A stretch of 64,000 nt of DNA from Escherichia coli. GTDB lineage: Bacteria; Pseudomonadota; Gammaproteobacteria; Enterobacterales; Enterobacteriaceae. The notes under the pieces are model-generated. The model did not search any database, was not told where the DNA came from, and worked only from the letters and a program-made list of their open reading frames with translations. The DNA lies in assembly GCF_003334255.1 (NCBI RefSeq), contig NZ_QOWU01000001.1; one strand, written 5' to 3'. The position numbers and the translations under genes are program-made. Each line of letters opens with the position of its first letter. Position 1 is the first letter of the stretch. Below are positions 28,287 through 64,000 of this stretch, in pieces.

Positions 28287-29527
28287 CGTGAACCTCGTAC
28301 AAACGCCTGCGCTTTCTCCAGACGCGTTTCATAATCAATACGCAACAGCATCATGATGGCTGTCGACATAATCAGTAAGCTCGAACCACCGTAACTGATC
28401 AGCGGCAATGTCAGACCTTTGGTCGGTAACATCCCCGCCGCCGCGCCTACGTTAACCAGCGCCTGGAAGCTAAACCAGATGCCAATAGAACAGGCGAGAA
28501 AACCGGAAAAACGGTGGTCAATTTCTAATGCTTTACGGCCAATCGACATCGCGCGAAAAGCGACGAAGAATACCATTAAAAGTGCCAGCACCACACCGAC
28601 ATACCCCAGTTCTTCGCCGATAATGGCGAAAATAAAGTCAGTGTGCGCTTCCGGCAGATACTCCAGTTTTTGTACCGAGTTACCTAAACCTTGCCCCCAA
28701 AGTTCGCCGCGACCAAACGCCATCAGCGATTGCGTTAACTGATAGCCGCTGCCAAAGGGATCTTCCCACGGGTTCCAGAATGCGGTAACACGGCGGATAC
28801 GGTACGGTTCGGCGAGTATCAGCAACACAACCGCTGAAATGCCCATACCGATAATGGCAATGAACTGCCACAATTTCGCTCCCGCCAGGAACAACATCGC
28901 CAGCGTAGTCACAAACAACACCACCACCGTACCAAGGTCTGGCTGTGCCAGCAGTAACACTGCCAACACCAGAATCACGCCCATCGGTTTCAGGAAGCCG
29001 CGCAGGTTATTACGTACTTCGTCGCCTTTACGCACCAGATAGTTGGCGATATAGCAAAACAGCGACAGTTTTGTCAGCTCCGCAGGCTGGATACGCAGCA
29101 AACCGAGATCGATCCAACGCGATGCCCCTTTAACCGAGCTACCCACTACCAGGACGATCATCAGCAGGATGATAGATCCGAGCAGCATCGTGGCACTGTA
29201 GCGTTGCCAGAACTCCATCGGCAGACGCAGCGTAATGATCGCCAGAATAAACGCCAAAATCAGATAGACACCATCACGCTTCGCGAAGAAGAACGGATCG
29301 TTGGTTAAGCGTTGCCCTATGGGCATTGACGCCGAGGTCACCATGATAAAGCCAATCGCCGCGAGGCCGAAGGTCAGCCACAGTAAAGTGCGATCGTACA
29401 TGATCAGGCTGTCGGTATCTTTTTCCCGCGAGCCCATCACCCAGCCCTTTAGCGCCGTGGAGATCCAGACCAGGATACTGAATCCTGGCAGGCGCGGCAT
29501 TTTCAGGCGAGGGAGAGATAAACGCAT
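28283..29527 (-). CDS. ftsW: lipid II flippase / peptidoglycan glycosyltransferase FtsW, SEDS family (414 aa)
   Basis: ORF 28283..29530 (TTG start) trimmed by one codon to the ATG at 29525..29527 ([19 protein letters not shown]); overlaps murD and murG. Confidence 0.93.
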
Positions 29528-47065: not shown

Positions 47066-49082
<2,017 letters not shown>

Positions 49083-49090
49083 TCCCCTTG

Positions 49091-49112
49091 CCCGGTCAAA
49101 TGACCGGGCTTT
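49091..49112. terminator. stem-loop between convergent leuD and setA
   Basis: CCCGGTCA aa TGACCGGG followed by CTTTCC, 9 bp after the leuD stop. Confidence 0.55.
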
Positions 49113-49130
49113 CCGCTATCGTCCACGTCA

Positions 49131-50309
49131 TCAAACGTCTTTAACCTTTGCGGTTAAAAATAATGCGACAACAGAAATAACCGCAATTACCCAGTAGACA
49201 GCAAAGTGCCCCCAACTTTGTGCAATTGCTCCCTGAATAACGCCAGCCAGAATTACCCCGGTAGAAATACTGTTAGTAAATAAGGTGGTAGCTGCCCCCG
49301 CTCTTCCAGGCATTAAATCCTGAAACCATAGCATCCCAATACCCGCAACAATGCCGATAAATACAGCGTTAAAAAGTTGCAGCGTCATCAACGCCATACG
49401 GCTATTAAAGAAAATCAATCCGGTGTAAAACAGTACTCCTGCCGCCACTGCTATGACCATCATTCGCCGCTTACCATAACGTTTGACATAGTAGCCAGCC
49501 AGAATCATTGCTGGTATTTCCAGTCCAGCTGCCGTCCCCATCAGGAAACCCGCCAGTTTGTCTGGCAATCCTAACTCGCTACTGATCCACAACGGCATAT
49601 CAATAATGTACATGGTGTTGCAGGTCCACATTAACGTCGAGGCGACAAATAACATCCGTACGTTACTATCCTGCCAGCCACCTTGCATTGATAAAGCATT
49701 TTCCGACGGCAGTTCTACCCGCGCCACAGACGGAAGCATAAATGCAATCAATACCAGACTGAGTGTGAATATCCCGGCGGCAATCGAAAACATCACCGTA
49801 AAGCCGTAATTCAACGCCAGCATAAAGGCCAACGGTGGACCGATAACCCATGCCAGAGAAAGCTGCGCACGCATCACCGAGCTAAACATCACCACTTCTC
49901 GCGCCGAGTTATCCGCATATTCCCGCGCCAGAGCAAATAACTGTGGCATTGCCGTATTGGCCAGAGATGCCAGAAGCACACCACAGGTGATAAGCGTCAG
50001 ATAATGACGATTAAATGCAAACAATAGCGCATTGCCGATAGCCATCAAACAGCAAAATATAATCAGTTTTCGCCGATCGCCCTGACTGTCAGAACGTTTT
50101 GCCAACCAGAGGCTTACGCCGATCCCAGCAATAGCATTCACCGTATAAAAGAGGCCGATCCAGAAAGGTTGCGCGCCAACCTCACGACTCAGAAATAAGC
50201 TCAATGTAGGAGCCTGTAGCGCCCCGGCCACCCCCATCATAAAAGCGACCAGCATAAATGCCGCGTAAACACCGTTCATACGGCGAGCCATCGTCATTAT
50301 CCAGATCAT
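49131..50309 (-). CDS. setA: sugar efflux transporter A, MFS (392 aa)
   Basis: ORF track; MIWIMTMARRMNGVYAAFMLVAFMMGVAGALQAPTLSLFLSREVGAQPFW; 12-TM MFS. Confidence 0.94.
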   Translation of the reverse strand: MIWIMTMARRMNGVYAAFMLVAFMMGVAGALQAPTLSLFLSREVGAQPFWIGLFYTVNAIAGIGVSLWLAKRSDSQGDRRKLIIFCCLMAIGNALLFAFNRHYLTLITCGVLLASLANTAMPQLFALAREYADNSAREVVMFSSVMRAQLSLAWVIGPPLAFMLALNYGFTVMFSIAAGIFTLSLVLIAFMLPSVARVELPSENALSMQGGWQDSNVRMLFVASTLMWTCNTMYIIDMPLWISSELGLPDKLAGFLMGTAAGLEIPAMILAGYYVKRYGKRRMMVIAVAAGVLFYTGLIFFNSRMALMTLQLFNAVFIGIVAGIGMLWFQDLMPGRAGAATTLFTNSISTGVILAGVIQGAIAQSWGHFAVYWVIAVISVVALFLTAKVKDV

Positions 50310-50336
50310 ACGTTCCCTTTTTAGCGCGGCGAGAAT

Positions 50337-50563
50337 AAAAAAAACCAGCAGGTATAATCTGCTGGCGGGTGATTTTACACCAATACTCAGTCACACATGA
50401 TGCAGGCAAGTCAACTTTCAGAATTGCGGTCATCCCACTGCATCAGTCCTTCAAGCATGGTTAATCGTTGTGGGACGCTTAACCAACGCAACCAGCACAA
50501 CTTCGCTGTCGCGGTAAAATAGTGCTGATAAAACTGACGCATGGGGCACCCCCTTGCTTCATC
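50337..50563 (-). ncRNA. sgrS: SgrS small RNA (~227 nt), dual-function sugar-phosphate stress sRNA
   Basis: Minus strand from 50563 reads GATGAAGCAAGGGGGTGCCCCATGCGTCAG, the SgrS 5' end as I recall it; 3' end is CCAGCAG attatac CTGCTGG (50345..50365) plus U8 (50337..50344), preceded by the ptsG-pairing region ...TGTGTGACTGAGTATTGGTG... Confidence 0.88.
50411..50542 (-). CDS. sgrT: SgrT small protein (43 aa), encoded within SgrS
   Basis: ATG at 50540..50542; MRQFYQHYFTATAKLCWLRWLSVPQRLTMLEGLMQWDDRNSES; the 99-aa ORF-track entry is an upstream in-frame extension. Confidence 0.85.
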   Translation of the reverse strand: MRQFYQHYFTATAKLCWLRWLSVPQRLTMLEGLMQWDDRNSES

Positions 50564-50630
50564 GTTAGGAATTATTGACTTAATATAGGGAAAATAAAAT
50601 TGCTGTCTTTTGCACAGGAGTTCCCCTTTT

Positions 50631-52286
50631 ATGCCATCTGCTCGTCTGCAACAACAGTTCATCCGCCTGTGGCAATGCTGCGAGGGTAAATCGCAGGACA
50701 CAACGCTCAACGAACTGGCAGCGTTATTGAGCTGCTCGCGTCGTCATATGCGCACCCTGCTCAACACCATGCAGGATCGCGGCTGGCTGACGTGGGAAGC
50801 GGAAGTCGGGCGCGGTAAACGCTCGCGTCTGACATTCCTCTATACCGGGCTGGCGCTTCAGCAACAGCGGGCGGAAGACCTGCTGGAGCAGGATCGTATC
50901 GATCAACTGGTGCAGTTGGTTGGCGACAAAGCGACTGTGCGGCAAATGCTGGTTTCTCATCTGGGCCGCAGCTTCCGCCAGGGGCGGCACATCCTGCGCG
51001 TGCTCTACTATCGTCCGTTGCGTAATCTGCTACCTGGCAGCGCATTGCGCCGTTCCGAAACCCATATCGCCCGGCAAATCTTCAGTTCGCTAACGCGCAT
51101 AAATGAGGAAAATGGGGAACTGGAAGCAGACATCGCCCACCACTGGCAGCAAATTTCACCGCTTCACTGGCGTTTCTTTTTGCGTCCAGGAGTCCATTTT
51201 CACCATGGTCGTGAACTGGAAATGGACGATGTGATCGCCTCTTTAAAACGAATCAATACGCTGCCGCTCTATTCGCATATTGCTGACATTGTGTCGCCGA
51301 CGCCCTGGACGCTGGATATCCATCTCACGCAACCGGACCGCTGGTTACCGTTACTGCTGGGGCAAGTTCCGGCGATGATCCTGCCGCGCGAATGGGAAAC
51401 CCTCAGTAACTTTGCCAGCCATCCCATCGGCACCGGTCCGTATGCGGTGATTCGCAACAGCACCAATCAACTGAAAATTCAGGCATTCGATGACTTCTTC
51501 GGTTACCGGGCATTAATCGACGAAGTTAACGTCTGGGTTCTGCCGGAAATTGCCGACGAGCCAGCCGGAGGGCTGATGCTAAAAGGTCCACAGGGCGAGG
51601 AAAAAGAGATTGAAAGCCGCCTGGAGGAAGGTTGCTACTATTTACTGTTCGACAGCCGCACCCATCGCGGGGCGAATCAGCAAGTCAGGGACTGGGTAAG
51701 CTATGTGCTTTCTCCAACTAATCTGGTCTATTTCGCTGAGGAACAGTACCAGCAACTGTGGTTCCCGGCTTATGGACTGCTCCCCCGTTGGCACCATGCC
51801 CGCACCATAAAGAGCGAAAAACCGGCTGGCCTGGAAAGCCTCACCCTAACCTTTTATCAGGATCACAGTGAGCATCGGGTGATTGCCGGGATCATGCAGC
51901 AGATTCTGGCAAGTCACCAGGTCACGCTGAAAATCAAAGAGATCGACTACGATCAGTGGCATACAGGAGAGATCGAAAGTGATATCTGGCTAAACAGCGC
52001 CAACTTTACCCTGCCGCTGGACTTCTCTGTTTTCGCACATTTATGCGAAGTGCCACTGCTACAACATTGCATTCCCATTGACTGGCAAGCCGACGCTGCT
52101 CGCTGGCGCAATGGCGAGATGAATCTGGCGAACTGGTGCCAGCAACTGGTCGCCAGCAAAGCGATGGTGCCATTATTGCACCACTGGCTGATCATTCAGG
52201 GGCAACGCAGTATGCGCGGCCTGCGCATGAATACCCTCGGCTGGTTCGATTTTAAATCAGCGTGGTTTGCGCCACCGGATCCATGA
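50631..52286 (+). CDS. sgrR: transcriptional regulator SgrR (551 aa)
   Basis: ORF 50610..52286 trimmed to the ATG at 50631 ([45 protein letters not shown]); divergent from sgrS. Confidence 0.93.
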
Positions 52287-52321
52287 TTGCTGGTTGATAA
52301 CAAAATCACTACACTAACGCC

Positions 52322-52414
52322 GTTCTCAACGGGGTGCCACGCGTACGCGTGCGCTGAGAAAATACCCGTCGAACCTGATCCGGATAACGCCGGCGAAGGG
52401 ATTTGAGGCTCCTT
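52322..52414 (+). promoter_or_regulatory. TPP (THI-box) riboswitch in the thiBPQ leader (SroA region)
   Basis: GGGGTGCCACGCGTACGCGTGCGCTGAGAAAATACCCGTCGAACCTGATCCGGATAACGCCGGCGAAGGGA carries the conserved THI-element CUGAGA and ACCUGAUCYGGAUAAUGCCAGCGAAGGGA-like core, 40-130 bp upstream of thiB. Confidence 0.85.
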
Positions 52415-52449
52415 CTCAAGTCCTTTGCCACTCTTTTTTGAGGTGCAAA

Positions 52450-53433
52450 GTGTTAAAAAAATGTCTGCCCCTGCTGTTGCTGTGCACAGCGCCCGTTTTC
52501 GCTAAACCCGTTCTGACTGTTTATACCTACGATTCCTTCGCCGCCGACTGGGGGCCTGGTCCGGTGGTTAAAAAAGCCTTTGAAGCCGACTGTAATTGCG
52601 AACTGAAACTGGTGGCGCTGGAAGATGGCGTTTCGCTTCTCAACCGTCTACGGATGGAAGGCAAAAACAGTAAAGCCGATGTGGTGCTGGGGCTGGATAA
52701 CAACCTGTTAGACGCCGCCAGTAAAACCGGACTGTTTGCCAAAAGCGGTGTGGCAGCGGATGCCGTTAACGTTCCCGGCGGCTGGAATAATGACACTTTC
52801 GTACCGTTTGATTATGGCTACTTCGCCTTCGTTTATGACAAGAACAAACTGAAAAACCCGCCACAAAGCCTGAAAGAACTGGTTGAGAGCGATCAAAACT
52901 GGCGGGTGATTTATCAGGATCCGCGCACCAGTACACCGGGGCTGGGTCTGTTGCTATGGATGCAAAAAGTCTATGGCGATGACGCCCCACAAGCCTGGCA
53001 GAAACTGGCGAAGAAAACGGTCACGGTCACCAAAGGCTGGAGCGAAGCCTACGGCCTGTTTTTAAAAGGTGAAAGCGATCTGGTACTGAGTTACACCACC
53101 TCTCCGGCTTATCACATTCTCGAAGAGAAGAAAGATAACTACGCCGCCGCGAACTTCAGCGAAGGTCACTATCTGCAAGTGGAAGTCGCCGCCCGCACCG
53201 CTGCCAGCAAGCAGCCGGAGCTGGCGCAAAAATTCCTCCAGTTTATGGTTTCTCCGGCTTTCCAGAATGCGATCCCAACCGGCAACTGGATGTATCCGGT
53301 GGCAAACGTCACGCTGCCTGCCGGTTTTGAAAAATTGACCAAACCCGCAACCACGTTGGAGTTCACGCCAGCCGAAGTGGCGGCACAACGTCAGGCATGG
53401 ATTAGCGAATGGCAACGCGCCGTCAGCCGTTAA
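52450..53433 (+). CDS. thiB: thiamine ABC transporter periplasmic binding protein (327 aa), GTG start
   Basis: ORF 52438..53433 (TTG) trimmed to the GTG at 52450 (M/V LKKCLPLLLLCTAPVFA signal peptide). Confidence 0.9.
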   Translation: MLKKCLPLLLLCTAPVFAKPVLTVYTYDSFAADWGPGPVVKKAFEADCNCELKLVALEDGVSLLNRLRMEGKNSKADVVLGLDNNLLDAASKTGLFAKSGVAADAVNVPGGWNNDTFVPFDYGYFAFVYDKNKLKNPPQSLKELVESDQNWRVIYQDPRTSTPGLGLLLWMQKVYGDDAPQAWQKLAKKTVTVTKGWSEAYGLFLKGESDLVLSYTTSPAYHILEEKKDNYAAANFSEGHYLQVEVAARTAASKQPELAQKFLQFMVSPAFQNAIPTGNWMYPVANVTLPAGFEKLTKPATTLEFTPAEVAAQRQAWISEWQRAVSR

Positions 53434-55020
53434 TTCCCGGCTGGTTAATTCCAGGTGTAAGCGCCACCACGCTGGTGGTAGCGGTTGCGCTGGCGGCGTT
53501 TCTCGCCCTGTGGTGGAACGCGCCGCAGGATGACTGGGTGGCAGTCTGGCAGGACAGCTATCTGTGGCATGTGGTGCGCTTCTCCTTCTGGCAGGCGTTT
53601 CTCTCGGCACTGCTCTCTGTCATACCCGCGATATTCCTCGCCCGCGCGCTCTATCGCAGGCGCTTTCCGGGTCGGCTGGCGCTGTTGCGTCTGTGTGCAA
53701 TGACCTTGATCCTCCCGGTGTTGGTCGCTGTTTTCGGCATTCTTAGCGTCTATGGTCGCCAGGGCTGGCTGGCAACACTCTGCCAATTCGCTCGGTCTGG
53801 AGTGGACCTTTTCGCCCTACGGCCTGCAAGGTATTTTGCTGGCCCATGTGTTTTTTAATCTGCCGATGGCGAGCCGCTTATTACTCCAGGCACTGGAAAA
53901 CATCCCCGGCGAACAGCGTCAACTTGCCGCCCAGCTTGGGATGCGTAGCTGGCATTTTTTCCGCTTCGTCGAATGGCCGTGGTTACGGCGACAAATCCCG
54001 CCGGTTGCTGCGCTTATCTTTATGCTCTGTTTCGCCAGCTTCGCCACCGTGCTATCGCTGGGGGGCGGTCCGCAGGCGACCACTATCGAGCTGGCAATCT
54101 ATCAGGCGCTGAGTTACGACTACGATCCTGCCCGCGCGGCAATGCTGGCGCTGCTCCAGATGGTGTGCTGCCTCGGGCTGGTGCTGTTGAGTCAGCGATT
54201 GAGTAAGGCCATTGCGCCCGGCACCACGCTGCTGCAAGGCTGGCGCGACCCGGACGATCGTCTGCATAGCCGCATTTGCGACACGGTGTTAATTGTGCTG
54301 GCGCTGCTGCTGTTGCTGCCACCGTTACTGGCGGTGATCGTCGATGGGGTAAATCGCCAGTTGCCGGAAGTGCTGGCACAACCGGTGCTGTGGCAGGCGC
54401 TGTGGACCTCGTTGCGTATTGCGCTGGCGGCAGGTGTATTGTGCGTAGTGCTGACCATGATGCTGCTATGGAGCAGTCGCGAACTGCGGGCGCGGCAGAA
54501 AATGCTGGCGGGTCAGGTGCTGGAGATGAGCGGCATGTTGATCCTCGCCATGCCGGGGATTGTGCTGGCTACCGGCTTCTTTTTACTGCTCAACAACACT
54601 ATCGGCCTGCCACAATCTGCTGACGGCATTGTGATTTTCACCAATGCGTTAATGGCGATCCCTTATGCGCTGAAAGTGCTGGAAAACCCGATGCGCGATA
54701 TCACCGCCCGCTACAGCATGTTATGTCAGTCGCTGGGGATTGAAGGCTGGTCACGCTTAAAAGTGGTGGAGCTGCGCGCCCTGAAACGTCCACTGGCGCA
54801 GGCGCTGGCCTTTGCATGCGTGCTGTCGATTGGTGATTTTGGCGTGGTGGCGTTGTTCGGTAACGATGATTTCCGCACCCTGCCGTTTTATCTCTACCAG
54901 CAAATTGGCTCCTATCGCAGCCAGGACGGTGCGGTCACCGCGTTAATTCTGCTGCTGCTCTGTTTTCTGCTGTTTACCGTGATTGAAAAACTACCGGGGC
55001 GAAATGTTAAAACTGACTGA
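53409..55020 (+). pseudogene. thiP: thiamine ABC transporter permease thiP, disrupted by a +1 frameshift near 53787
   Basis: Two overlapping ORFs, 53409..53858 (frame 0, MATRRQPLIPGWLIPGVSATTLVV...) and 53752..55020 (frame 1), both read as ThiP; the start-to-stop span is 1612 bp, one base more than an intact 536-codon gene; reading switches frame at CAA-T-TCG (53784..53790). Confidence 0.7.
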
Positions 55021-55702
55021 TATCACCTGGCTTTACCACCATTTGCCGATGCGTTTTAGCTTAACGGTGGAACGCGGCGAGCAGGTGGCGATCCTCGGGC
55101 CAAGCGGCGCGGGTAAAAGTACCCTGCTGAATTTGATCGCCGGTTTTCTGACGCCAGCCAGCGGTTCGCTGACTATCGATGGCGTAGATCACACAACTAT
55201 GCCGCCGTCACGCCGTCCGGTGTCGATGCTGTTTCAGGAGAACAACCTGTTCAGCCACCTGACGGTCGCACAGAACATCGGGCTGGGGCTAAATCCGGGA
55301 TTGAAACTGAACGCGGTACAGCAGGGGAAAATGCACGCTATCGCCCGCCAGATGGGGATTGATAATTTAATGGCGCGGTTACCGGGCGAGCTTTCCGGCG
55401 GTCAGCGACAGCGAGTGGCGTTAGCGCGTTGTCTGGTACGCGAACAGCCGATTTTATTGCTCGATGAACCGTTCTCTGCGCTCGATCCGGCGTTACGTCA
55501 GGAGATGTTGACGCTGGTGAGCACGAGCTGCCAGCAGCAAAAAATGACGCTATTGATGGTGTCGCACAGCGTGGAAGATGCGGCGCGGATCGCCACGCGC
55601 TCGGTAGTAGTCGCCGACGGGCGCATCGCCTGGCAGGGTATGACCAATGAGTTGTTGAGCGGTAAGGCGAGTGCTTCGGCACTATTGGGGATTACGGGTT
55701 AG
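55004..55702 (+). CDS. thiQ: thiamine ABC transporter ATP-binding subunit (232 aa)
   Basis: ORF 54983..55702 trimmed to the ATG at 55004 ([43 protein letters not shown]); 17-bp overlap with thiP. Confidence 0.93.
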
Positions 55703-55709
55703 TATGCAC

Positions 55710-55797
<88 letters not shown>

Positions 55798-55815
55798 CCC
55801 GCACAAGACTATCTC

Positions 55816-56580
55816 CTAAACCCCAACCACTTTACGCAAAATATCGATATACACCGGCATCAACGGGTGGCGAATTAACACCACCAGCGCCACCACGCCG
55901 ATGGCAGAAATCAACGGCGTCAGCCACAACAAACGACCGCGGGACAAATAATGACTCAAACGGTCAGTCGCTTTACCGCTGCGCCATAACCGCCAGCACA
56001 GCCAGCCACCAACCCACAAAAACACCGCTGTTGCCAGCAGCAACCATTTAAACTCACCGCTCTGCATTCCGGCAGGAATATCGATCGCCGCGCCCGCCAG
56101 AATCCCTGGCAGGAAGTAAAACGGCGGCCACAGCAGGCAGCCGATAATATTCGGCGTAATAAATTTAGCCACCGGCAGATCCAGCATTCCCGCCACCATT
56201 GGCACCAGCGGACGCGTCGGGCCAACAAAACGACCGACCAGAATGGTGAACATGCTGTGTTGATGCAACGCATGTTCAGTTTTATCAAGTAGTGCTTTGT
56301 TTTTCTTCAGAAATGACCAGCGATGCAACGGCTTTTTAAAACGCCAACCCAGCCAGAAAGAAATCCAGTCGCCCATCAAGCAGCCAATAATCCCTGCCAG
56401 CCAGGCGTGCCAGAAACTTAACTCGCCGCTGCCAATCAGCGCTCCCAGCCCCGCCATCAGCACCGTACCGGGTAGAATCAAACCGACCAGCGCCAGCGAC
56501 TCCAGAAAGGCCACCAACACCACCGCCATCAATGAATACACGGTGGATTGGGTAATAAAGTGTTCCAGCAATGCTTGCAT
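55816..56580 (-). CDS. yabI: DedA-family inner membrane protein (254 aa)
   Basis: ORF track; MQALLEHFITQSTVYSLMAVVLVAFLESLALVGLILPGTVLMAGLGALIG. Confidence 0.92.
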   Translation of the reverse strand: MQALLEHFITQSTVYSLMAVVLVAFLESLALVGLILPGTVLMAGLGALIGSGELSFWHAWLAGIIGCLMGDWISFWLGWRFKKPLHRWSFLKKNKALLDKTEHALHQHSMFTILVGRFVGPTRPLVPMVAGMLDLPVAKFITPNIIGCLLWPPFYFLPGILAGAAIDIPAGMQSGEFKWLLLATAVFLWVGGWLCWRLWRSGKATDRLSHYLSRGRLLWLTPLISAIGVVALVVLIRHPLMPVYIDILRKVVGV

Positions 56581-56665
56581 AATGTGCCTGTCAAATGGAC
56601 GAAGCAGGGATTCTGCAAACCCTATGCTACTCCGTCAAGCCGTCAATTGTCTGATTCGTTACCAA

Positions 56666-57544
56666 TTATGACAACTTGACGGCTACATCATTCACTTTTT
56701 CTTCACAACCGGCACGAAACTCGCTCGGGCTGGCCCCGGTGCATTTTTTAAATACTCGCGAGAAATAGAGTTGATCGTCAAAACCAACATTGCGACCGAC
56801 GGTGGCGATAGGCATCCGGGTAGTGCTCAAAAGCAGCTTCGCCTGACTAATGCGTTGGTCCTCGCGCCAGCTTAAGACGCTAATCCCTAACTGCTGGCGG
56901 AAAAGATGTGACAGACGCGACGGCGACAAGCAAACATGCTGTGCGACGCTGGCGATATCAAAATTGCTGTCTGCCAGGTGATCGCTGATGTACTGACAAG
57001 CCTCGCGTACCCGATTATCCATCGGTGGATGGAGCGACTCGTTAATCGCTTCCATGCGCCGCAGTAACAATTGCTCAAGCAGATTTATCGCCAGCAGCTC
57101 CGAATAGCGCCCTTCCCCTTGCCCGGCGTTAATGATTTGCCCAAACAGGTCGCTGAAATGCGGCTGGTGCGCTTCATCCGGGCGAAAGAAACCCGTATTG
57201 GCAAATATTGACGGCCAGTTAAGCCATTCATGCCAGTAGGCGCGCGGACGAAAGTAAACCCACTGGTGATACCATTCGCGAGCCTCCGGATGACGACCGT
57301 AGTGATGAATCTCTCCTGGCGGGAACAGCAAAATATCACCCGGTCGGCAGACAAATTCTCGTCCCTGATTTTTCACCACCCCCTGACCGCGAATGGTGAG
57401 ATTGAGAATATAACCTTTCATTCCCAGCGGTCGGTCGATAAAAAAATCGAGATAACCGTTGGCCTCAATCGGCGTTAAACCCGCCACCAGATGGGCGTTA
57501 AACGAGTATCCCGGCAGCAGGGGATCATTTTGCGCTTCAGCCAT
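56666..57544 (-). CDS. araC: arabinose operon regulator AraC (292 aa)
   Basis: ORF 56666..57595 trimmed to the ATG at 57542..57544 ([55 protein letters not shown]). Confidence 0.96.
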
Positions 57545-59583
<2,039 letters not shown>

Positions 59584-59593
59584 GGACACGATA

Positions 59594-61096
59594 ATGACGA
59601 TTTTTGATAATTATGAAGTGTGGTTTGTCATTGGCAGCCAGCATCTGTATGGCCCGGAAACCCTGCGTCAGGTCACCCAACATGCCGAGCACGTCGTTAA
59701 TGCGCTGAATACGGAAGCGAAACTGCCCTGCAAACTGGTGTTGAAACCGCTGGGCACCACGCCGGATGAAATCACCGCTATTTGCCGCGACGCGAATTAC
59801 GACGATCGTTGCGCTGGTCTGGTGGTGTGGCTGCACACCTTCTCCCCGGCCAAAATGTGGATCAACGGCCTGACCATGCTCAACAAACCGTTGCTGCAAT
59901 TCCACACCCAGTTCAACGCGGCGCTGCCGTGGGACAGTATCGATATGGACTTTATGAACCTGAACCAGACTGCACATGGCGGTCGCGAGTTCGGCTTCAT
60001 TGGCGCGCGTATGCGTCAGCAACATGCCGTGGTTACCGGTCACTGGCAGGATAAACAAGCCCATGAGCGTATCGGCTCCTGGATGCGTCAGGCGGTCTCT
60101 AAACAGGATACCCGTCATCTGAAAGTCTGCCGATTTGGCGATAACATGCGTGAAGTGGCGGTCACCGATGGCGATAAAGTTGCCGCACAGATCAAGTTCG
60201 GTTTCTCCGTCAATACCTGGGCGGTTGGCGATCTGGTGCAGGTGGTGAACTCCATCAGCGACGGCGATGTTAACGCGCTGGTCGATGAGTACGAAAGCTG
60301 CTACACCATGACGCCTGCCACACAAATCCACGGCAAAAAACGACAGAACGTGCTGGAAGCGGCGCGTATTGAGCTGGGGATGAAGCGTTTCCTGGAACAA
60401 GGTGGCTTCCACGCGTTCACCACCACCTTTGAAGATTTGCACGGTCTGAAACAGCTTCCTGGTCTGGCCGTACAGCGTCTGATGCAGCAGGGTTACGGCT
60501 TTGCGGGCGAAGGCGACTGGAAAACTGCCGCCCTGCTTCGCATCATGAAGGTGATGTCAACCGGTCTGCAGGGCGGCACCTCCTTTATGGAGGACTACAC
60601 CTATCACTTCGAGAAAGGTAATGACCTGGTGCTCGGCTCCCATATGCTGGAAGTCTGCCCGTCGATCGCCGCAGAAGAGAAACCGATCCTCGACGTTCAG
60701 CATCTCGGTATTGGTGGTAAGGACGATCCTGCCCGCCTGATCTTCAATACCCAAACCGGCCCAGCGATTGTCGCCAGCTTGATTGATCTCGGCGATCGTT
60801 ACCGTCTACTGGTTAACTGCATCGACACGGTGAAAACACCGCACTCCCTGCCGAAACTGCCGGTGGCGAATGCGCTGTGGAAAGCGCAACCGGATCTGCC
60901 AACTGCTTCCGAAGCGTGGATCCTCGCTGGTGGCGCGCACCATACCGTCTTCAGCCATGCACTGAACCTCAACGATATGCGCCAATTCGCCGAGATGCAC
61001 GACATTGAAATCACGGTGATTGATAACGACACACGCCTGCCAGCGTTTAAAGACGCGCTGCGCTGGAACGAAGTGTATTACGGGTTTCGTCGCTAA
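59594..61096 (+). CDS. araA: L-arabinose isomerase (500 aa)
   Basis: ORF 59570..61096 trimmed to the ATG at 59594 ([39 protein letters not shown]). Confidence 0.96.
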
Positions 61097-61100
61097 GTAG

Positions 61101-61282
61101 CCGCATCCGGTATGTAACGCCTGATGCGACGCTGACGCGTCTTATCTGGCCTACACGCTGCGATTTTGTAGGCCGGATAAGCAAAGCGCATCCGGCATTC
61201 AACGCCTGATGCGACGCTGGCGCGTCTTATCAGGCCTACACGCTGCGATTTTGTAGGCCGGATAAGCAAAGCGCATCCGGCA
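61101..61282. repeat. tandem REP/BIME array in the araA-araD spacer: two complete 85-bp units plus a 12-bp partial
   Basis: Unit 1 61101..61185 and unit 2 61186..61270 are near-identical (GCGCATCCGG..AACGCCTGATGCGACGCTG.CGCGTCTTATC.GGCCTACACGCTGCGATTTTGTAGGCCGGATAAGCAAA); 61271..61282 restarts the unit. Confidence 0.9.
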
Positions 61283-61295
61283 CGAAGGAGTCAAC

Positions 61296-61991
61296 ATGTT
61301 AGAAGATCTCAAACGCCAGGTATTAGAAGCCAACCTGGCGCTGCCAAAACACAACCTGGTCACGCTCACATGGGGCAACGTCAGCGCCGTTGATCGCGAG
61401 CGCGGCGTCTTTGTGATCAAACCTTCCGGCGTCGATTACAGCGTCATGACCGCTGACGATATGGTCGTGGTTAGCATCGAAACCGGTGAAGTGGTTGAAG
61501 GTACGAAAAAGCCCTCCTCCGACACGCCAACTCACCGGCTGCTCTATCAGGCATTCCCCTCCATTGGCGGCATTGTGCATACGCACTCGCGCCACGCCAC
61601 CATCTGGGCGCAGGCGGGTCAGTCGATTCCAGCAACCGGCACCACCCACGCCGACTATTTCTACGGCACCATTCCCTGCACCCGCAAAATGACCGACGCA
61701 GAAATCAACGGCGAATATGAGTGGGAAACCGGTAACGTCATCGTAGAAACCTTTGAAAAACAGGGTATCGATGCAGCGCAAATGCCCGGCGTTCTGGTCC
61801 ATTCCCACGGCCCGTTTGCATGGGGCAAAAATGCCGAAGATGCGGTGCATAACGCCATCGTGCTGGAAGAGGTCGCTTATATGGGGATATTCTGCCGTCA
61901 GTTAGCGCCGCAGTTACCGGATATGCAGCAAACGCTGCTGGATAAACACTATCTGCGTAAGCATGGCGCGAAGGCATATTACGGGCAGTAA
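61296..61991 (+). CDS. araD: L-ribulose-5-phosphate 4-epimerase (231 aa)
   Basis: ORF track; [49 protein letters not shown]. Confidence 0.96.
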
Positions 61992-62065: not shown

Positions 62066-64000
62066 GTGGCGCAGGCAGGTTTTATCTTAACCCGACACTG
62101 GCGGGACACCCCGCAAGGGACAGAAGTCTCCTTCTGGCTGGCGACGGACAACGGGCCGTTGCAGGTTACGCTTGCACCGCAAGAGTCCGTGGCGTTTATT
62201 CCCGCCGATCAGGTTCCCCGCGCTCAGCATATTTTGCAGGGTGAACAAGGCTTTCGCCTGACACCGCTGGCGTTAAAGGATTTTCACCGCCAGCCGGTGT
62301 ATGGCCTTTACTGTCGCGCCCATCGCCAATTGATGAATTACGAAAAGCGCCTGCGTGAAGGTGGCGTTACCGTCTACGAGGCCGATGTGCGTCCGCCAGA
62401 ACGCTATCTGATGGAGCGGTTTATCACCTCACCGGTGTGGGTCGAGGGTGATATGCACAATGGCACTATCGTTAATGCCCGTCTGAAACCGCATCCCGAC
62501 TATCGTCCGCCGCTCAAGTGGGTTTCTATAGATATTGAAACCACCCGCCACGGTGAGCTGTACTGCATCGGCCTGGAAGGCTGCGGGCAGCGCATCGTTT
62601 ATATGCTGGGGCCGGAGAATGGCGACGCCTCCTCGCTTGATTTCGAACTGGAATACGTCGCCAGCCGCCCGCAGTTGCTGGAAAAACTCAACGCCTGGTT
62701 TGCCAACTACGATCCTGATGTGATCATCGGTTGGAACGTGGTGCAGTTCGATCTGCGAATGCTGCAAAAACATGCCGAGCGTTACCGTCTTCCGCTGCGT
62801 CTTGGGCGCGATAATAGCGAGCTGGAGTGGCGCGAGCACGGCTTTAAAAACGGCGTCTTTTTTGCCCAGGCTAAAGGTCGGCTAATTATCGACGGTATCG
62901 AGGCGCTGAAATCCGCGTTCTGGAATTTCTCTTCATTCTCGCTGGAAACTGTCGCTCAGGAGCTATTAGGCGAAGGAAAATCTATCGATAACCCGTGGGA
63001 TCGAATGGACGAAATTGACCGCCGTTTCGCCGAAGATAAACCTGCGCTGGCAACTTATAACCTGAAAGATTGCGAGCTGGTGACGCAGATCTTCCACAAA
63101 ACTGAAATCATGCCATTTTTACTCGAACGGGCAACGGTGAACGGCCTGCCGGTGGACCGACACGGCGGTTCGGTGGCGGCATTTGGTCATCTCTATTTTC
63201 CGCGAATGCATCGCGCTGGTTATGTCGCGCCTAATCTCGGCGAAGTGCCGCCGCACGCCAGCCCTGGCGGCTACGTGATGGATTCACGGCCAGGGCTTTA
63301 TGATTCAGTGCTGGTGCTGGACTATAAAAGCCTGTACCCGTCGATCATCCGCACCTTTCTGATTGATCCCGTCGGGCTGGTTGAAGGCATGGCGCAGCCT
63401 GATCCAGAGCACAGTACCGAAGGTTTTCTCGATGCCTGGTTCTCACGGGAGAAACATTGCCTGCCGGAGATTGTGACTAACATCTGGCACGGGCGCGATG
63501 AAGCCAAACGTCAGGGTAATAAACCACTTTCGCAGGCGCTGAAGATCATTATGAATGCCTTTTATGGCGTGCTTGGCACCACCGCCTGCCGCTTTTTCGA
63601 TCCGCGCCTGGCATCGTCGATCACCATGCGTGGTCATCAGATCATGCGGCAAACCAAAGCATTGATTGAAGCGCAGGGCTACGACGTTATCTACGGAGAT
63701 ACCGACTCGACTTTTGTCTGGCTAAAAGGTGCACATTCGGAAGAAGAGGCGGCGAAAATCGGTCGTGCACTGGTGCAGCACGTTAACGCCTGGTGGGCGG
63801 AAACGCTGCAAAAACAACGGCTGACCAGCGCATTAGAACTGGAGTATGAAACTCATTTCTGCCGTTTTCTTATGCCAACCATTCGCGGAGCTGATACCGG
63901 CAGTAAAAAGCGCTACGCCGGGCTGATTCAGGAGGGCGACAAGCAGCGGATGGTGTTTAAAGGGCTGGAAACCGTGCGCACCGACTGGACGCCGCTGGCC
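62066..64000 (+). CDS. polB: DNA polymerase II, 5' ~645 codons; gene runs off the window end; GTG start
   Basis: Frame opens after the TGA at 62051..62053; the GTG at 62066 gives [41 protein letters not shown] and stays open to 64000; B-family polymerase motifs (YGDTDS) follow; not in the ORF track because no stop lies inside the window. Confidence 0.9.

Follow-up and report, generated by a model that had tools for sequence, protein, structure and literature searches.

A gene that appears as two overlapping reading frames may be a pseudogene or a product of faulty base calling, and thiP in the 64,000-nt stretch of Escherichia coli DNA analyzed here (referred to as the window) raises exactly this question. 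On the plus strand, a 5′ fragment at 53409..53858 encodes 149 amino acids (aa), comprising 126 native codons that cover transmembrane helices TM1 to TM3, 23 out-of-frame codons, and a TAA stop, and the remainder of the gene lies in the +1 frame at 53789..55020, with native codons 127 to 536 plus the stop. Called mechanically, the second open reading frame (ORF) is the 422-aa frame +1 ORF at 53752..55020, with an out-of-frame ATG at 53752 as its start. An earlier note on this DNA had described the two overlapping ORFs at 53409..53858 and 53752..55020 and had given thiP a start-to-stop span of 1612 bp, one more than an intact 536-codon gene. The ORF listing reproduces these coordinates, and the span is indeed 1612 nt, which equals 1 modulo 3; the 125 native codons ascribed to the first ORF, by contrast, have to be corrected to 126, followed by the 23 out-of-frame ones.

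ThiP is the fused 12-helix permease of ThiBPQ, the ABC importer of thiamine and thiamine pyrophosphate (TPP). The operon context typical of this protein, thiB-thiP-thiQ behind a TPP riboswitch, is present in the window. An intact riboswitch heads thiBPQ at 52320..52419 on the plus strand (Rfam RF00059, 65.9 bits versus a gathering score of 54.3) and the annotations of MG1655 and of the human fecal strain G1/2, the closest relative of the window, have it at the same place. The gene for the periplasmic thiamine-binding protein, thiB (52450..53433, plus strand), and the gene for the ATPase subunit, thiQ (55004..55702, plus strand), are both intact and are nucleotide-identical to their G1/2 counterparts (WP_001301364.1 and WP_000916281.1, respectively). 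The 3′ end of thiB overlaps the thiP start, and the start of thiQ overlaps the thiP stop. Further out, sgrR and SgrS lie upstream of the thiBPQ region, and yabI and araC lie downstream. The view of the earlier note that all flanking genes are intact held for sgrR, thiB, thiQ, yabI, and araC, each of which is nucleotide-identical to an intact annotated gene of G1/2.

When the window was aligned to MG1655 and to G1/2, the sole gap fell at position 53787, where the window reads CTGCCAATTCGCTCG and both references read CTGCCAATCGCTCG, that is, CAATTCG versus CAATCG. The lesion is thus a TT at 53787..53788 on the plus strand versus a single T in every reference, with the additional nucleotide following codon 126 (CAA, Gln). 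Deletion of either T53787 or T53788 restores a single 536-codon ORF reading ...LATLCQSLGLEWTF..., and thiP with one T removed is 1611 nt long, is nucleotide-identical to MG1655 thiP, and encodes WP_000235721.1. Compared with ThiP of E. coli K-12 (WP_000235721.1), the window therefore has the same gene sequence once one T is removed and the same riboswitch-thiB-thiP-thiQ order, and it differs in the 1-nt insertion after codon 126, which leaves no single ORF that reaches the cutoff of the protein family (see below).

Restoration of the frame is a weak guide to position. Any single-base deletion in the ORF overlap also reopens the 536 codons, with the exception of 53753, where deletion creates a stop codon, and the frame-restoring positions include nearly all of those from 53740 to 53858. 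Because nearly every deletion in the overlap restores the frame, the frame test alone cannot place the lesion, and the TT is identified by the reference alignment only. The alignment gap and the identity to MG1655 after repair nonetheless agree with what had been proposed, namely, that one extra T at 53787-53788 splits an otherwise intact 536-codon thiP. Two of the checks suggested with this proposal gave the same answer: deletion of one T yields a single 536-codon ORF, and the reference alleles have a single T in a 1611-nt gene. The K-12 gene, which the earlier note had given as a single 536-codon ORF, is one 1611-nt gene in MG1655.

The reasoning by which the extra T had first been located was unsound, although its conclusion was right. 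It relied on an internal repeat between the two permease halves, and LCQSLGLEW (53775-53801, residues 123-131) and LCQSLGIEGW (54718-54747) do look repeat-like, but they occupy nonhomologous positions. In BLASTP of the two ThiP halves, the first-half partner of MLCQSLGIEGW from the second half is QLAAQLGMRSW rather than LCQSLGLEW, and LCQSLGIEGW belongs to the EAA-loop region of the second half. On the basis of this comparison of the halves, we regard the likeness as coincidental and rejected it as evidence for the lesion.

Protein family profiles place the locus clearly. Membership in the ThiP equivalog family NCBIfam NF006953 (/ TIGR01253) is defined by a full-length match above 970 bits, and the 536-aa protein obtained by removing one T scores 1189 bits. 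As they stand, both ORFs fall under 970: the 149-aa fragment scores 257 bits and matches over residues 1-127 only, and the second fragment scores 921 bits over profile positions 116-536. Since no encoded product reaches the NF006953 cutoff, the locus is thiP by descent but a pseudogene. The restored protein contains BPD_transp_1 (Pfam PF00528) twice, at residues 74-267 and 369-523, as befits a fused two-domain permease; in the window, the first of these domains is broken at residue 127, where the frame shifts. Hydropathy analysis of restored ThiP gives approximately 12 hydrophobic helices and puts the frameshift in the loop between TM3 (96-114) and TM4 (141-159). The 149-aa product accordingly retains 3 of the 12 transmembrane helices and lacks both EAA-loop regions, one at residues about 171-180 of the first half and the other its counterpart in the second half, through which permeases of this family contact the ATPase.

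Whether the extra T is real depends on where else it occurs. Megablast with 53409-55020 matched 5,400 of the 5,426 complete RefSeq E. coli genomes, and in each of the best 30 places listed, a single annotated thiP gene spans 1611 nt with 99.9% identity. Of the complete RefSeq E. coli genomes, 5,381 were matched by an 81-nt query that spans the insertion site, and none of these carries the extra T (no match at ≥99%). Reference alleles with TT in a continuous frame, which had been named as the finding that would speak against a lesion, were thus absent among these 5,381 genomes. The truncated product of the frameshifted thiP was nevertheless already in public records before this analysis. Its exact 149-aa sequence is found in the public protein data as CUJ85844.1 and CAM2963093.1, the second of which may be a redeposit of the same assembly as the first, and it sits on nine public contigs. 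The carriers include GCA_001299315.1 and the Logan assemblies of SRR3825894 and SRR8529115, and these three of the nine carrier contigs (L006, L007, and L008, respectively) were compared with the window. In GCA_001299315.1, positions 56245-68694 of CYUC01000003.1 (211,902 nt) correspond to window positions 47409-59858 with 100% identity over 12,450 nt; a 39-kb contig of SRR3825894 is 100% identical to the window over 8,330 nt, and a 2-kb contig of SRR8529115 is 100% identical over 2,052 nt. All three have the TT, and L006 and L007, the two that reach leuC, also share a leuC Gly252Ser change with the window. The thiP allele of GCA_001299315.1 (CUJ85844.1) therefore shows no difference from that of the window over 12,450 nt, TT and leuC Gly252Ser included.

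These data bear directly on the choice between mutation and base-call error, which the earlier note had left open. That the strain has a truly intact thiP and that the T was introduced by base calling or assembly would fit the absence of the allele from all 5,381 complete RefSeq genomes matching the site, and single-base indels are a frequent assembly artifact. However, an NCBI assembly and the Logan assemblies of two SRA runs carry this TT as well, in surroundings that are 100% identical to the window, and a random error would not be expected to recur in separate read sets and pipelines; the independence of the carrier data sets rests on their different accession series and assembly pipelines. 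The site is also poorly suited to such an error, being a single T in the references and outside any homopolymer run, and the window sequence contains no Dam or Dcm motif at the insertion site. Moreover, the comparison with G1/2 revealed only three differences, including one indel, in 64 kb, which indicates that the assembly is not indel prone, and a second indel relative to this nearest relative was not found. A sequencing artifact would be irreproducible and accompanied by other indels, and the extra T is neither. We thus regard an error as very unlikely and consider it highly probable, from the agreement among these sequences, that the 1-nt insertion is real and fixed in one clonal E. coli lineage, in which thiP is now a pseudogene.

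The clone that carries this insertion appears to be a culture collection strain that has been sequenced several times. GCA_001299315.1 was deposited as "Achromobacter sp. ATCC35328" but is really E. coli and has been excluded as mislabeled (PMC5405338, PMC5597208), and the window may represent the ATCC35328 strain or a clone of it. Searches of the literature for thiP frameshifts returned no description of this allele, and there was nothing on the carrier runs SRR3825894 and SRR8529115. A metagenome scan with a mutant 28-mer gave 0 matches, a result with almost no power, as the wild-type control 27-mer had only 7. In E. coli infections, thiP and tbpA deletions are among the variants found within patients (PMC7845604), and damage to the thiBPQ operon is for this reason not unusual. 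Among public proteins, GHK09998.1 (190 aa, from a 4.9-Mb E. coli contig) is a different truncated N-terminal ThiP that falls in the same 90% cluster, which suggests that thiP has been disrupted independently elsewhere in E. coli.

Given a real insertion, a further question is whether the break is a clean null. We see only a very slight chance that it is not, with residual ThiBPQ activity left either by ribosomal slippage at UUU UAA (53853-58) or by coassembly of N- and C-terminal fragments; if true, this would make the allele a natural frameshift rescued by ribosomal slippage or a split permease.

In the first of these scenarios, ribosomes would slip +1 at the frame-0 stop and produce a 536-aa ThiP that differs from the native one in residues 127-148 and retains some transport. 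At GTT TTT TAA T (53850-53859), which contains the stop, a tRNA-Phe in the P site could move one base forward and pair with TTT again, after which the frame would continue natively (AAT CTG...), and "shifty stops" of the UUU-stop kind do occur in E. coli. Unstimulated slips are inefficient, however, and the 15 nt before UUU UAA (53853-53858) hold no Shine-Dalgarno-like element (ggcccatgtgttttt) that could act as the upstream stimulator does in prfB. The arrangement is also accidental to a private mutation rather than conserved, and the 22 substituted residues would take in the first part of TM4. We judge such slippage to be exceedingly unlikely as a source of working permease.

The second scenario, in which the 149-aa TM1-3 fragment combines with a C-terminal fragment initiated from TTG 53836 or ATG 53866 into a working transporter, seems just as improbable to us. 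Some membrane transporters tolerate splitting, a gene caller did call a 394-aa product from TTG 53836, with a weak AAGG 4 nt upstream, and reinitiation is conceivable at the in-frame ATG at 53866 (native Met153), 8 nt downstream of the stop. Hence, some C-terminal ThiP fragment could be made from either start. Neither has a good ribosome-binding site, though, and initiation at 53836 or 53866 would truncate TM4 (141-159). The longer, 422-aa ORF fares no better, as inspection of the sequence before ATG 53752 revealed no Shine-Dalgarno sequence and no called product in the public protein collection has exactly this 422-aa sequence. Such a split arrangement was found in no other E. coli among the 5,381 complete genomes.

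Programmed +1 frameshifting of the prfB type can be dismissed on conservation, as the extra base occurs in 0 of the 5,381 complete E. coli genomes and the annotated thiP genes among the matches listed are all single 1611-nt ORFs. Both prfB (RF2) and the window thiP need a one-base forward shift, and thiP has a U-rich codon before its frame-0 stop (UUU UAA), but it lacks conservation among orthologues, a stop or slippery codon at the insertion, and an upstream Shine-Dalgarno stimulator; the thiP frameshift is not a member of this class.

Taking the insertion as an inactivating mutation, we propose the following consequences. Translation from the native thiP start would shift frame in the TM3-TM4 loop, and the ribosome would read 23 wrong codons before stopping at the TAA at 53856-53858, so that approximately 1.1 kb of untranslated mRNA would precede thiQ. 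Polarity on thiQ is expected because the start of thiQ normally lies within the stop region of thiP, and translational coupling and Rho-dependent polarity are both well-established phenomena; lost coupling together with Rho-dependent polarity would be predicted to lower ThiQ as well, and thiQ thus probably suffers polarity. High-affinity uptake of external thiamine would be abolished under this model, and, as far as the sequence can tell, ThiBPQ-mediated uptake of thiamine and TPP is most likely lost. As E. coli can make thiamine de novo, the loss would be tolerated where the strain does so.

The frameshifted allele is a strain-specific pseudogene of an ordinary kind, in a gene that is well known, and has little import beyond strain bookkeeping. 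It does follow that thiP is better marked here as a pseudogene than as two genes and that, if the window represents the ATCC 35328 clone or a relative that serves as a control strain, this strain is probably unable to scavenge thiamine at low concentrations. More generally, a search for the exact truncated product across independent public assemblies can distinguish true frameshifts from errors of base calling even without reads.

The remainder of the window defines the lineage in which the insertion occurs. By its overall similarity, the window is K-12-like but not K-12. Over the first 61 kb, it differs from MG1655 by five substitutions plus the one gap, and over all 64,000 nt, it differs from G1/2 at three positions, namely, 47819 (leuC Gly252Ser), the extra T, and 54087, the last of which is synonymous and private to G1/2. 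The last 8.9 kb of the window is 100% identical to the German human fecal isolates G1/2, G6/7, and G8. Within polB, 27 substitutions relative to MG1655 fall in positions 63382-64000 at intervals that are multiples of three (third codon positions), and the DNA around this block is otherwise near-identical to MG1655. The block extends past the end of the window, is 100% common to G1/2, G6/7, and G8, and is an imported recombinant segment. In the araA-araD intergenic region (61100-61300), a REP-type repeat has one approximately 85-nt unit fewer than in MG1655, with a spacer of 284 nt in MG1655 and of 199 nt in both G1/2 and the window. A K-12 laboratory origin (e.g., an MC4100-type ara region) was rejected, as both the mosaic block in polB and the arrangement of the REP units match the wild human isolates G1/2, G6/7, and G8 at 100%.

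Several smaller differences accompany these. In the ftsW/murF/murE region, the substitutions relative to MG1655 at 29387, 32341, and 34355 are common to G1/2, and because the MurF and MurE accessions of G1/2 differ from those of MG1655, at least two of these changes would be nonsynonymous lineage markers. The G-to-A change at 47819, where MG1655 and G1/2 both have G, is private to the lineage of the window and gives LeuC Gly252Ser; together with the extra T, it makes both window-private changes in the 64 kb protein altering, with neither being silent. Residue 252 of LeuC lies in a poorly conserved, gap-prone stretch in comparison with solved homologues, and the substitution is probably benign for this reason; the same position in the protein leaves the idea of a deliberate auxotrophy marker unsupported.
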